Virus record (IMG/VR): IMGVR_UViG_2713896906_000007
Span: 1 to 40,423 of that record
Strand: one strand, 5' to 3'
DNA length: 40,423 nucleotides
Origin: a virus
Taxonomy: Duplodnaviria > Heunggongvirae > Uroviricota > Caudoviricetes
In this document: positions 25,321 through 28,330 of the stretch, piece after piece
Layout of the letters: every line of letters starts with the position of its first letter
Numbering within the stretch: position 1 is the stretch's first letter
Made by a program: the position numbers and the translations under genes
Notes under the pieces: generated by a model
What the model was told of the DNA's origin: nothing
Databases searched by the model: none
The model's input: the letters and a program-made list of their open reading frames with translations, nothing else

Positions 25321-25353
25321 TCAAAAAGAAAAACGCCAGCGATTATTCTGGCG
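25321..25353 (-). terminator. Rho-independent terminator downstream of the AraC-family gene
   Basis: Minus strand: ACGCCAG-loop-CTGGCGT followed by TTTTTCTTTTT. Confidence 0.5.
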
Positions 25354-25415
25354 TAGCTGAAAGCATCATACAATTATCAAATACGAAAATTACAAAATCA
25401 TTAAAACGCATCACG

Positions 25416-26156
25416 TTACATCATTTCTTTTTCTAAAAAAAATCTTGATGAATATTGATGGGGAGGAACACCAAAATATCTTCTGAAAACACTTACAAAA
25501 TATGACGTGTTTTCATAACCGCATATCTCAGCAACTTTCCCAACAGAATATAAATTGTAGCTTAATAACCTTTCCGCCATCACCATTCGCTCTTCAAGAA
25601 TTAATTTACTAAATGATAAGCCTTCGTGCTTTAATTTTCTTTTTAACAGACTTTCACTCAGATACAGCCTTGAAGATATATCACAAAGTCTCCATGCTGC
25701 AGATATATCCGTGTGAATAATAGCCTTAACTTTACTTCCTAAACTATTAAGACATCCAAATAAAAAACTTTGCACTATTTTCTCTGAAGATAAGATAGCA
25801 AGACATGCAAGTGATATTTGATTTCTAACAACATCCACAGTTCTGCCATCACAATTCAAGCATGCAATCAAGTTCTTTAACAATGAAAAATCTTCACATT
25901 CCACCATCAAGTATGCCGGATAAAACCTTCTTACAGAAAAAGGTGAGAGTGTGTTGCTTTTAAAGAAATCATTAACTGTTTTCTCTTCAACATCTACAAT
26001 CATTACATGATCTATATTTGATGAAAAAAAATCTTTTAAATTGTAATCAATGAGAACAGCACTTCCTTTTTTAAACAAAATATCTTCTTTACCAATTCGG
26101 ACATCAAACGAGTTCAACACCAAAATGATAGAACATATGTATGGCATATTATCCAC
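25416..26156 (-). CDS. AraC-family transcriptional regulator (AppY-like)
   Basis: 246 aa with C-terminal AraC-type HTH (...YENTSYFVSVFRRYFGVPPHQY). Very AT-rich. Confidence 0.75.
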   Translation of the reverse strand: MDNMPYICSIILVLNSFDVRIGKEDILFKKGSAVLIDYNLKDFFSSNIDHVMIVDVEEKTVNDFFKSNTLSPFSVRRFYPAYLMVECEDFSLLKNLIACLNCDGRTVDVVRNQISLACLAILSSEKIVQSFLFGCLNSLGSKVKAIIHTDISAAWRLCDISSRLYLSESLLKRKLKHEGLSFSKLILEERMVMAERLLSYNLYSVGKVAEICGYENTSYFVSVFRRYFGVPPHQYSSRFFLEKEMM

Positions 26157-26498
26157 CTGATATCATTGGGGTTACACCAGGTAAGTATAGGTGGAAAATC
26201 AATATTCGCCAGTTCAACAATAAGGAAAATCTCATTGCATCACAAGTATAAAATTATGTATTTAACTCACAAAGACAAATTATTAAACCAATCCGTTATA
26301 TTATATATAGCTACGTGGAATCATAATATTATATATTTTGACTGGCATGTTTACCAACTTTAAATTGTATCTCAATGGTTTGTTCAGCGTAAACAGAGTT
26401 TTTATACAAACTGACACTCTGGGTATCATAGTGTAGTTTTTACGATTGTAAATATCCTGCATGCAGGAACTCATCCTTTTGGATGATATCGCATACAA

Positions 26499-27458
26499 TT
26501 AATTTACCATCAGTCTTAGAGCCAGTTCGTCCGGATAGGGATCGAAGTAATTCTGTGTAAGCAAGTAATCATTAGGATACTCACCCAGATAATGCTTCAG
26601 CAGAGTCAACGGCGCAAGAAGAGGTAATGTGCCAGAACGATAGTTAAGTATAACCTCGCTCAACTCTTTACGCTGGCGTGTACTTAAGTAGTTACTAAAA
26701 TACCCCTGTATATGCATCAGCACATTCGTGTGATTTTTACGTGATGCAGGTTTTCTGAGAATCGCCATCAGCTTATCACGATACACCTCAAAGTATGATT
26801 CAAGGTCCGCCCACTCGTGTATTGCAGCCACAAATGGTCCCATATCTTTATAGCCTGCCTGACTATGCGCCAACAACTGAAGCTTATAACGACTATGAAA
26901 AGCTAATAACTCTCTTCTTGATAATTTCTCCTTGTAAAGGTGATTGAGCTCATGCAAAGCAAAAACTCTTTCAACAAAATTCTCACGAAGCACTGGATCA
27001 TGTAATCGCCCATCCTCTTCAACCGGTAGCCAGGAAAACTTTTCCATCAAAGTGCTCGTAAATAGTCCCACTCCATCTTTACGACCTCGATTACCATTTT
27101 CATCATAGACACGTACGCGCTCCATGCCACAGCTGGGAGATTTAGCACAAACCACAAACCCCGATACATCCTTTAATTTGTCCATATAAGAACGACTAAA
27201 CTCTGTCATTCTCTCTGTCACATCCTCATTCTGGTCGTGGCTGAAACACATCCGTATATTTCCTTGCGTCGAGCGCACAAGACGTAGAGCAGGACGCGGA
27301 ACTGGCAGCCCTATAGCCATTTCCGGACATACTGGTCTGAATGTTACCCATTCCACTAATTTGTCCATTAAAAAGTCAGCTCTTTTGTGACCACCATCAA
27401 AACGAACAGCAGAACCGGCCAAACAACCGCTGATTCCAATCACAGGTTTTTTTATCAT
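26499..27458 (-). CDS. DUF523/DUF1722 fusion protein (YbgA/TudS-like)
   Basis: N-terminus MIKKPVIGISGCLAGSAVRFDGGHK is typical of DUF523, including the Cys ligands. 319 aa. Confidence 0.7.
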   Translation of the reverse strand: MIKKPVIGISGCLAGSAVRFDGGHKRADFLMDKLVEWVTFRPVCPEMAIGLPVPRPALRLVRSTQGNIRMCFSHDQNEDVTERMTEFSRSYMDKLKDVSGFVVCAKSPSCGMERVRVYDENGNRGRKDGVGLFTSTLMEKFSWLPVEEDGRLHDPVLRENFVERVFALHELNHLYKEKLSRRELLAFHSRYKLQLLAHSQAGYKDMGPFVAAIHEWADLESYFEVYRDKLMAILRKPASRKNHTNVLMHIQGYFSNYLSTRQRKELSEVILNYRSGTLPLLAPLTLLKHYLGEYPNDYLLTQNYFDPYPDELALRLMVN

Positions 27459-27650
27459 ATCCTCCCCCTTGACTAATTCATTAACACATAAACTGTGTAG
27501 TGCACGGAATAAATTGCCTTTCTGGCGTCATCACTGACAATTTTTCTGTTATGGACTATTCCTAATATAGTATGAAAGTTCTTTAAGTGATCGGTCGTAA
27601 TCATCTATCTTTCATACTTACTCTCAACTATCAAAAGTACAGGATTTATT

Positions 27651-28175
27651 ATGAAGTTATGGCCTGTGTTGACTGGCATTGCACTCTCTTTCACTCTTAT
27701 AGCATGTAAGGCCCCGACACCACCTAAAGGTGTGCAGCCGATTACAAATTTTGACGCCAACCGCTACCTCGGAAAATGGTATGAAATAGCTCGCCTCGAG
27801 AACCGGTTCGAACGTGGTCTGGAACAGGTCAGCGCTACTTATGGAAAACGGAACGACGGAGGGATTCGTGTACTTAACCGTGGATACAATCCAACGAAAA
27901 ATAAATGGAGCGAGAGCGAAGGTAAAGCATACTTTACTGGAGATACTAAAACTGCAGCGTTGAAGGTTTCGTTTTTTGGCCCCTTCTATGGTGGCTATAA
28001 TGTAATCAAACTGGATGATGAGTATAAGTATGCTCTTGTCAGTGGTCCGAACAGAGAATACCTATGGATTCTGGCAAGGACCCCAACTATTCCAGATAAA
28101 GTAAAAGCAGACTATGTGCGAACCGCTCAAAAGTTGGGATTCAATGTCAATGAATTATTATGGGTTAAACAATAA
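27651..28175 (+). CDS. blc: Outer-membrane lipocalin Blc homologue (lipoprotein)
   Basis: Lipobox LIAC followed by NFDANRYLGKWYEIARLENRFERG and SFFGPFYGGYNVIKLD, matching Blc. Only plus-strand gene in this block. Confidence 0.85.
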   Translation: MKLWPVLTGIALSFTLIACKAPTPPKGVQPITNFDANRYLGKWYEIARLENRFERGLEQVSATYGKRNDGGIRVLNRGYNPTKNKWSESEGKAYFTGDTKTAALKVSFFGPFYGGYNVIKLDDEYKYALVSGPNREYLWILARTPTIPDKVKADYVRTAQKLGFNVNELLWVKQ

Positions 28176-28202
28176 AATCCCTACCCGAAATGATACTTAT
28201 TA

Positions 28203-28230
28203 GAAAAAATCCAGCCTTTGGGGAGGCTGG
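28203..28230 (-). terminator. Candidate tR'-like terminator downstream of Q
   Basis: Minus strand: CCAGCCT-loop-AGGCTGG followed by ATTTTTTC, ~100 nt after the Q stop. Confidence 0.4.
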
Positions 28231-28330
28231 CTAAATCAGGAAACAAGCTGTTATATGATAATAACTACGTTGCGATTCCAACATTTAAAATGTTGGACTA
28301 ATGACAATCAGACAGCAACATTTCCTTTAA

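Follow-up and report, generated by a model that had tools for sequence, protein, structure and literature searches.

Gene content of the Q–S interval

The 40,423-nucleotide stretch of DNA analysed here (positions 1 to 40,423 of the IMG/VR virus record IMGVR_UViG_2713896906_000007; Duplodnaviria, Heunggongvirae, Uroviricota, Caudoviricetes), hereafter called the window, carries a lambdoid E. coli prophage whose late region is transcribed on the minus strand, as read from its open reading frames (ORFs). Between the gene of the antiterminator Q and the holin gene S this region contains an island of three genes, which encode a Blc-type lipocalin, a predicted tRNA 4-thiouridine (s4U) desulfidase, RudS, and an AraC-type regulator. 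In the direction of late transcription a DUF968/HNH-like gene is followed by Q, a hairpin, blc on the plus strand, rudS, the araC-type gene, a second hairpin, the holin gene, the lysozyme gene and Rz/Rz1 (Table 1). The island is a real, widespread and largely explained moron block and not a new kind of system. Published work exists for two of the three genes, and the third adds a new member to a regulator family that is already known. No paper treating blc, rudS and the regulator as one unit was found in the literature.

Table 1. Features of the late region around the Q–S interval (aa, amino acids; GC, guanine-cytosine content)
Feature	Position	Strand	Remarks
DUF968/HNH-like gene	28726-29721	-	upstream of Q
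Antiterminator Q, QuuD-type, 125 aa	28331-28708	-	PF06530, 171 bits; match to phrog_79
Presumed pR' and Q-loading region	28231-28330	-	placed from the site directly after Q
Intrinsic terminator, candidate tR'	28201-28230	-	CCAGCCTCCCCAAAGGCTGG then ATTTTTTCTA
Blc-type outer-membrane lipocalin lipoprotein, 174 aa	27651-28175	+	NF007786, PF08212; antisense to late transcription
Divergent blc/rudS intergenic region, 192 bp	27459-27650	.	spacing as in C. sedlakii
rudS, TudS (DUF523) + DUF1722 fusion, 319 aa	26499-27458	-	PF04463, PF08349
AT-rich spacer, 351 bp, 31.9% GC	26148-26498	.	upstream of the araC-type gene
PatE/Psr-family AraC-type regulator, 243 aa, 31.7% GC	25416-26147	-	HTH_18, HTH_AraC, phrog_1450
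Intrinsic terminator closing the cargo block	25323-25354	-	ACGCCAGAATAATCGCTGGCGT then TTTTCTTTTT; about 100 bp before the holin start
S21-type class II holin, 71 aa, MKSM dual start	25011-25226	-	PF04971, 118.8 bits; first lysis gene
SAR-type phage lysozyme	24514-25014	-	downstream of the holin
Rz	24050-24529	-	spanin gene

The first-pass annotation of the window, made from the letters alone, had described an AraC-family regulator, a DUF523/DUF1722 protein and a lipocalin between Q and the holin. These genes and their strands are borne out by the ORFs and by Pfam and NCBIfam profile matches, and the terminator-like hairpins reported on both sides of the island were found again at 28230-28211 and 25354-25333 on the minus strand. 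The dimensions required correction. The interval, given as about 2.6 kb, measures 3.1 kb from the stop of Q (28330) to the start of S (25227), with a spacer of 155 bp between Q and blc, and the holin start is moved from 25316 to 25226, which gives the protein of 71 residues with the MKSM dual start. The description of the island as very AT-rich holds for its araC half, the regulator gene and the spacer between rudS and this gene having a GC content of 31.7% and 31.9%, but not for blc and rudS (43-44%). With 32-44% GC, the island differs in composition from the flanking phage genes, as morons do; Q, S and R lie at 48-50% and the whole window at 50%. It also possesses a terminator of its own, the second property by which morons are recognized, in the form of the hairpin at 25354-25333 with its T run. 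Like the first hairpin, this terminator is kept in the island allele of Escherichia phage 1H12.

On sequence grounds the middle gene of the island encodes RudS, a tRNA s4U desulfidase, and is an orthologue of the RudS_vir gene of phage 1H12. Its product carries a TudS/DUF523 domain (PF04463, residues 7-149, 137.9 bits) fused to a DUF1722 domain (PF08349, residues 192-309, 138.2 bits), which is the architecture that characterizes RudS. It shares 93% amino acid identity over all 319 residues with RudS_vir (gp66, H3V29_gp66), whose gene was synthesised, and its product assayed, by Jamontas et al. 2024 (PMC11417400). Every RudS assayed in that study, RudS_vir included, reduced s4U in E. coli tRNA on overexpression. 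The residues essential in RudS_KT, namely the cluster cysteines C17, C49 and C114 together with E51, R60, S111 and S113 (PMC11417400), all have counterparts in the translation of the island gene (C12, C44, C110, E46, R55, S107 and S109). From the 93% identity with RudS_vir it is expected that the island enzyme would also lower s4U. The label "YbgA/TudS-like" given in the first-pass annotation was therefore imprecise. The same publication describes E. coli as a species without RudS, having the DUF1722-only protein YbgA, and reports that the growth delay induced by ultraviolet A (UVA) light is shortened by RudS_KT (PMC11417400). The rudS gene of the island is preceded by a strong ribosome-binding site (RBS), GGGGGAGG.

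The product of blc scores 317 bits against the Blc subfamily model NF007786 (cut-off 267) and 150 bits against PF08212. The lipobox claimed earlier for this plus-strand gene was confirmed: the translation reads MKLWPVLTGIALSFTLIAC followed by K, with L-I-A-C at residues 16-19 and the lysine at position +2. A lipoprotein signal with a residue other than Asp at +2 is the signature of sorting to the outer membrane. With the rudS-linked Blc of E. cloacae the island protein shares 81% identity, but with the core Blc of K-12 only 60%, which implies that lysogens hold two Blc paralogues. Many prophage exclusion or serum-resistance proteins are likewise outer-membrane lipoproteins encoded antisense in the late region, and the morons of lambda-like phages are mostly membrane proteins (PMC6969025). 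Both facts would suit a superinfection-exclusion or receptor-masking factor acting in the manner of Cor or Llp instead of in envelope lipid handling. We nevertheless regard this function as extremely unlikely, given the 81% identity to a Blc that is encoded on a chromosome, outside any phage, in synteny with rudS, the score above the Blc subfamily cut-off and the result of PADLOC, whose models of known anti-phage defence systems returned no match for any island protein. On its own strand blc has no T-run terminator in the stretch that follows it (28176-28230), where the sole hairpin is the complement of the late terminator. Transcripts of blc may extend antisense into Q.

The regulator ORF extends from 26156 to 25416 on the minus strand; the likely start is the ATG at 26147, which is preceded by the RBS AGGTGGA and gives a protein of 243 residues. 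The matches to HTH_18 (54.9 bits, cut-off 33.6) and HTH_AraC (44.1 bits, cut-off 26.6) correspond to the C-terminal double helix-turn-helix of AraC/XylS proteins, and the protein scores 359 bits against phrog_1450. The homologues returned by protein searches are unnamed E. coli proteins only. For a closer assignment, sequences of ECs_0287 and PsrA were taken from the Sakai genome by position. The regulator shares 54% identity over 235 residues with ECs_0287 (Sp1), 39% over 235 residues with PsrA (ecs1087, full 237-residue ORF), and 32% with each of AppY and YdeO. It reaches 127 bits where the YdeO equivalog model requires 348, and 86 bits where the GadX model requires 500. Of the "AppY-like AraC regulator" proposed in the first-pass annotation, the AraC type thus stands and the closeness to AppY does not. 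Full-length similarity and prophage location assign the protein to the PatE/Psr family, and its Q–S location is that of psrA. In Sakai Sp4, the interval from Q to the lysis genes is occupied by psrA, which points in the direction of late transcription and so provides a direct precedent for a regulator at this site. ECs_0287 is the sole AraC-type gene of Sp1, the counterpart of CP-933H/OI-8, and is therefore very probably PatE (z0321). Array data show its induction in early stationary phase. PatE, PsrA/B and AppY all feed the glutamate decarboxylase (GAD) acid-resistance system (PMC10877973, PMC10057817). The annotated PsrA (ECs_1087, 13678-14391 of the Sp4 stretch) has 195 residues, and an in-frame upstream ATG gives 237. 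The N-terminus of the longer form, MVVVCSVI..., aligns with those of the island regulator, AppY and YdeO; the annotated start of psrA is thus probably too short.

Two further observations concern the genes beyond the holin. An ORF for an Rz1-type lipoprotein (24091-24297, minus strand) is nested in the +1 frame of Rz, which is the common arrangement of embedded spanin genes. A second AT-rich cargo gene (23336-23944, minus strand, about 37-40% GC), located between Rz and the terminase genes, encodes a 202-residue DUF2441 protein of unknown function (phrog_9842); in related prophages this slot holds bor/iss.

Distribution, selection and origin of the island

Comparison of the Q–S interval with that of prophage DLP12 of K-12, an approach already suggested by the first-pass annotation, defines both ends of the island. 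Nucleotide identity of 86-88% extends through Q to 28349, breaks off there and returns at 25237, 11 bp before the holin ATG. At the place of the island, DLP12 carries nmpC antisense after quuD. Together with psrA in O157 Sakai Sp4, nmpC supports the earlier view of the interval as a cargo slot.

The island matches 1152 of 5426 complete E. coli genomes, 993 of which carry at least 80% of it (about 18-21%). Its copies fall into allele classes of at least 99%, about 95% and about 90% identity. Occasional copies contain insertions of the insertion sequence (IS) elements IS1, IS2 or IS3 or have lost one end, and most are annotated as intact. Isolated phages also possess the island, at 99.2% identity in IdasGreatGrand from swamp mud and at about 90% in 1H12 and the Lambda_ev series. 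Since these are plaque-forming or induced phages, island phages are lytically competent. In a study of 19 lambda-like phages from E. coli of the infant gut, more than 50% were recorded as carrying blc as a moron (Mathieu et al. 2020, PMC6969025). Island sequences were also found on two short contigs (1-3209 and 1-2113) of the metagenome-assembled genome D148_maxbin.008, assigned to 'Candidatus Nanosynbacter sp.', with Q 99%, Blc 99%, RudS 94-100% and the regulator 98% identical, and with holin and lysozyme. These contigs are almost certainly mis-binned E. coli phage DNA. In a Qin-like defective prophage of E. coli B-LamR, Q is present and blc is intact, but IS3 has cut rudS so that only 147 nt at its start remain. 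The B lineage, which includes BL21(DE3), the host of the published RudS assays, may thus carry a remnant of the island.

The island is under purifying selection. Between the alleles of the window and of 1H12, the ratio of nonsynonymous to synonymous substitution rates (dN/dS) comes to 0.08 in blc, 0.10 in rudS and 0.25 in araC, at dS of 0.19-0.36. The genes are thus not decaying pseudogenes; silent pseudogenes were one of the outcomes that, according to the first-pass annotation, would have spoken against it. These values also bear on the question of whether the island is a silent, neutral passenger, for instance silenced by H-NS, that is common through its locking to a successful Q allele. 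Where the Q allele of the window occurs (at least 95% identity), blc nearly always comes next, the junction being covered in 1081-1082 genomes; the homology of QuuD-type Q alleles (about 86%) ends at the end of Q. The AT-rich regulator half resembles a typical H-NS target, and insertions and truncations do exist. However, the low dN/dS, the retention of every RudS catalytic residue and the majority of copies annotated as intact make a neutral passenger very unlikely.

For the origin of blc and rudS, chromosomal rudS genes were sought in 185,579 species genomes, one genome per species. In Enterobacterales 62 chromosomal loci were found, with RudS 67-77% identical to that of the island. A Blc-type gene (69-81% identical) lies divergently upstream at 41 of the 62, and 36 of these 41 share the layout in which blc is followed, on the opposite strand, by a MerR/MlrA-like gene, a transthyretin-like gene and rudS. 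Only at two loci, in C. sedlakii and Citrobacter sp. JGM124, is blc directly beside rudS with phage-like spacing (188 bp in C. sedlakii, 192 bp in the phage). Neither Q nor holin nor lysozyme genes occur near rudS at any of the 62 loci. The blc/rudS intergenic region of the phage has partial similarity to the chromosomal blc-proximal region, and nucleotide homology between the phage and the chromosomal cluster is confined to the two coding regions (66-75%). On this sequence comparison blc and rudS are taken to be a pair captured from a chromosomal cluster, with an origin separate from that of the regulator. The first-pass reading of the island, otherwise supported in part, had missed this co-inherited chromosomal pair as distinct from the AT-rich regulator.

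Some further rudS genes deserve mention. Two chromosomal copies on separate contigs of Citrobacter braakii ATCC 51113 each share about 76% identity with the phage gene, and no blc lies within 5 kb of either. The Salmonella SPI-2 genes orf70-orf319-orf242 were considered as a homologue of the whole island and rejected: orf319 is RudS_ST, but the neighbouring regulator is of the MerR type and not of the AraC type. Salmonella-type RudS is only about 74% identical to the phage protein.

The history of the regulator appears to be a different one. Other phages and Sakai Sp1 carry homologues of 52-54% identity singly, at their tail-fibre/att end, and in some island variants the regulator is missing but both blc and rudS are retained. 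These two facts and the low GC content of the gene speak for a moron acquired on its own, which probably acts on host genes and not as the island's own regulator. The opposite assignment would let the AraC-type protein stand in for the missing MerR-type regulator in the control of blc, rudS or both. The chromosomal cluster does have a dedicated regulator, in the place of which the phage has a regulator gene beside rudS, and about 990 genomes have inherited the three genes together. This assignment is nevertheless quite improbable, for the regulator differs in base composition, its homologues of 52-54% identity occupy other prophage sites without blc or rudS, the pair persists in variants that lack it, and its characterised relatives target host acid-resistance genes.

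Transcription of the island and proposed role

RefSeq annotation gives Q the same coding sequence of 378 nt, and the gene shares 86% nucleotide identity with quuD of DLP12 as far as 28349. An identification of Q as Q21 was ruled out, since the match to Q21 (PDB 6p18) amounts to 37 bits over 83 residues and indicates only a distant relationship; Q is QuuD-like. The published Q21 binding element is therefore inapplicable here. The layout of all lambdoid phages places pR' directly after Q. Downstream of this region the first hairpin (28230-28211, minus strand) folds with -15.9 kcal/mol (z = -2.8) and is followed by ATTTTTT. The second (25354-25333, minus strand; z = -1.6) is followed by TTTTCTTTTT. 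No other terminator was found between the two on the late strand. The AT-rich spacer contains two promoter-like matches of 10/12 positions on the minus strand (26452-26425 and 26357-26328). No sequence within 24000-29500 came close to a gathering score in a scan against Rfam. The window and DLP12 have in common the sequence ATATAACAG (28256-28248, minus strand) and a few other short blocks. ATATAACAG lies about 75-85 nt after the Q stop and is shared by this phage, 1H12 and DLP12 amid otherwise poor conservation. The motif may belong to the late promoter or to a sigma-dependent pause/Q-loading site of QuuD-type antiterminators.

We propose that the island is a composite moron of two origins, which hardens lysogens against stress and through which Q-modified polymerase reads. 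The probability of this reading is put at roughly 60%. It joins the observed gene identities, architecture, distribution and purifying selection to promoters, an expression programme and phenotypes that are predicted. The promoter pR' would lie directly after Q, within 28231-28330. In lysogens, without Q, its transcripts would end at 28230-28211, and lysogenic transcription of rudS and araC would end at 25354-25333, so that the second terminator would insulate the holin from it. After induction, Q-modified polymerase would pass both terminators and reach S-R-Rz; this read-through would be antisense in blc and sense in rudS and araC. A crossing of the island by late transcription, as already assumed in the first-pass annotation, fits the strong terminator after Q and the second one before S. 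RudS, as a [4Fe-4S] desulfidase, would turn tRNA 4-thiouridine back into uridine and trim a near-UV-sensitive modification. The site of action of Blc would be the outer membrane. The regulator would most likely, as the analogy of PatE, PsrA/B and AppY suggests, switch on the host acid-resistance genes gadE and hdeAB. The lysogen would thereby gain tRNA/near-UV, envelope and acid hardening at no cost to lytic development.

Several points weigh against this proposal. The consensus scan gave no convincing sigma-70 promoter for rudS, and with the MerR-type partner also gone it is uncertain whether lysogens express rudS. The number of promoter-like matches does not exceed that expected by chance (15 found, as against 10.8 ± 3.7 in shuffles), and neither the consensus scan nor the DLP12 alignment gave an acceptable -35/-10 pair for pR'. 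RudS_vir belonged to the weaker enzymes on tRNA, with the lowest desulfidation of those assayed despite good protein levels (PMC11417400). The targets suggested for the regulator derive solely from homologues of 32-54% identity. With regard to the blc-rudS transfer, the species-genome scan revealed no rudS donor closer than 77% (Citrobacter), while the phage clade is at least 90% identical. No RudS protein of 77-90% identity is contained in a collection of 5.8 billion proteins, and the GC content at third codon positions (GC3) is about 0.40 in the phage copies and 0.68-0.77 on chromosomes. This gap, together with the coding-only homology, suggests that the capture is old or that the donor is unsampled. 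We infer the direction of transfer from the breadth of chromosomal synteny, and any date for it would be equally indirect.

The lack of a clear rudS promoter is also compatible with a different role, in which rudS, and perhaps the regulator, is chiefly a late lytic auxiliary gene expressed from pR' and blc alone serves lysogenic conversion. Where sunlight or UV has set off induction, the erasure of the modification at position 8 (s4U8) would keep tRNA chargeable, avoid the stringent response and protect late protein synthesis and burst size, to the benefit of the phage itself. Both rudS and araC are co-oriented with late transcription with no intervening terminator, rudS has the strong RBS GGGGGAGG and has lost its MerR partner, and blc runs antisense, as do bor and nmpC, which are expressed in lysogens. 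The reduction of UVA growth delay by RudS points in the same direction. Conversely, intact rudS is kept in defective prophages that are unable to lyse (E. coli B, however, lost rudS), the block ends in a terminator of its own, a typical trait of autonomous morons, and the activity of RudS_vir is modest. On balance such a late role is unlikely, although it has a real chance of being correct. A stronger version of it starts from the fact that s4U8 is the near-UV sensor of the cell. On induction by sunlight or UV, Q-driven RudS might strip s4U8 from tRNA, which is itself a doubtful suggestion. The consequences, namely no s4U8-C13 cross-linking, no uncharged tRNA and no stringent response, with late phage proteins still being made, are doubtful to the same degree, as is the silencing of blc by antisense transcription in the same read-through. 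If true, a phage auxiliary gene would edit host tRNA modification and uncouple virus production from a light-stress checkpoint.

The proposed composite moron is of interest beyond this prophage. Approximately one in five complete E. coli genomes has a prophage-borne RudS, although the species has been described as being without the enzyme. Strain differences in s4U, UVA growth delay and stringent response could consequently be prophage-dependent. The co-capture of blc and rudS by phages argues that both act in one stress response. With the island regulator, the PatE/Psr family of prophage proteins, which rewire acid resistance, further gains an uncharacterised member that is widespread. The natural phages 1H12 and IdasGreatGrand are tractable for the study of whether tRNA de-modification helps the lysogen or the phage.

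Comparison with known systems

The slot, the antisense orientation of the first cargo gene and its coding for a membrane protein are shared with the quuD-nmpC-essD region of DLP12, and the flanks are 86-88% identical. The cargo is different, and the Q-proximal promoter region cannot be aligned by BLAST. The Q-stx-S arrangement of Shiga toxin (Stx) phages likewise uses the Q–S slot for other cargo. The closest counterpart is the RudS_vir locus of 1H12, which has the same TudS + DUF1722 architecture with cluster cysteines at 12, 44 and 110 and the same site between blc and an AraC-type gene in the Q–S interval. With about 90% nucleotide identity over the island and 83% amino acid identity of the regulator, it represents another allele.

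The chromosomal cluster of Enterobacter, Leclercia and Citrobacter contains the same divergent blc/rudS pair (Blc 77-81% and RudS 67-77% identical), in direct adjacency in C. sedlakii, but includes a MerR-type regulator and a transthyretin-like gene that are missing from the phage. E. coli core Blc (b4149; PDB 1QWD, 2ACO and 3MBT) agrees with the island protein in subfamily model, lipobox and length. The two are 60% identical, and the island copy belongs to the rudS-linked Blc lineage. PatE (z0321, OI-8/CP-933H) and PsrA/PsrB of enterohaemorrhagic E. coli resemble the island regulator in size, full-length fold family, low GC content and prophage location. The regulator is not an orthologue of these proteins, its targets are predicted by analogy, and PatE-like genes sit at the tail-fibre/att end. 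AppY of DLP12 and YdeO belong to the same AraC/XylS subfamily and can be aligned over their full length, and AppY is also AT-rich and prophage-borne. Both are, however, far more distant from the island regulator than PatE and PsrA.

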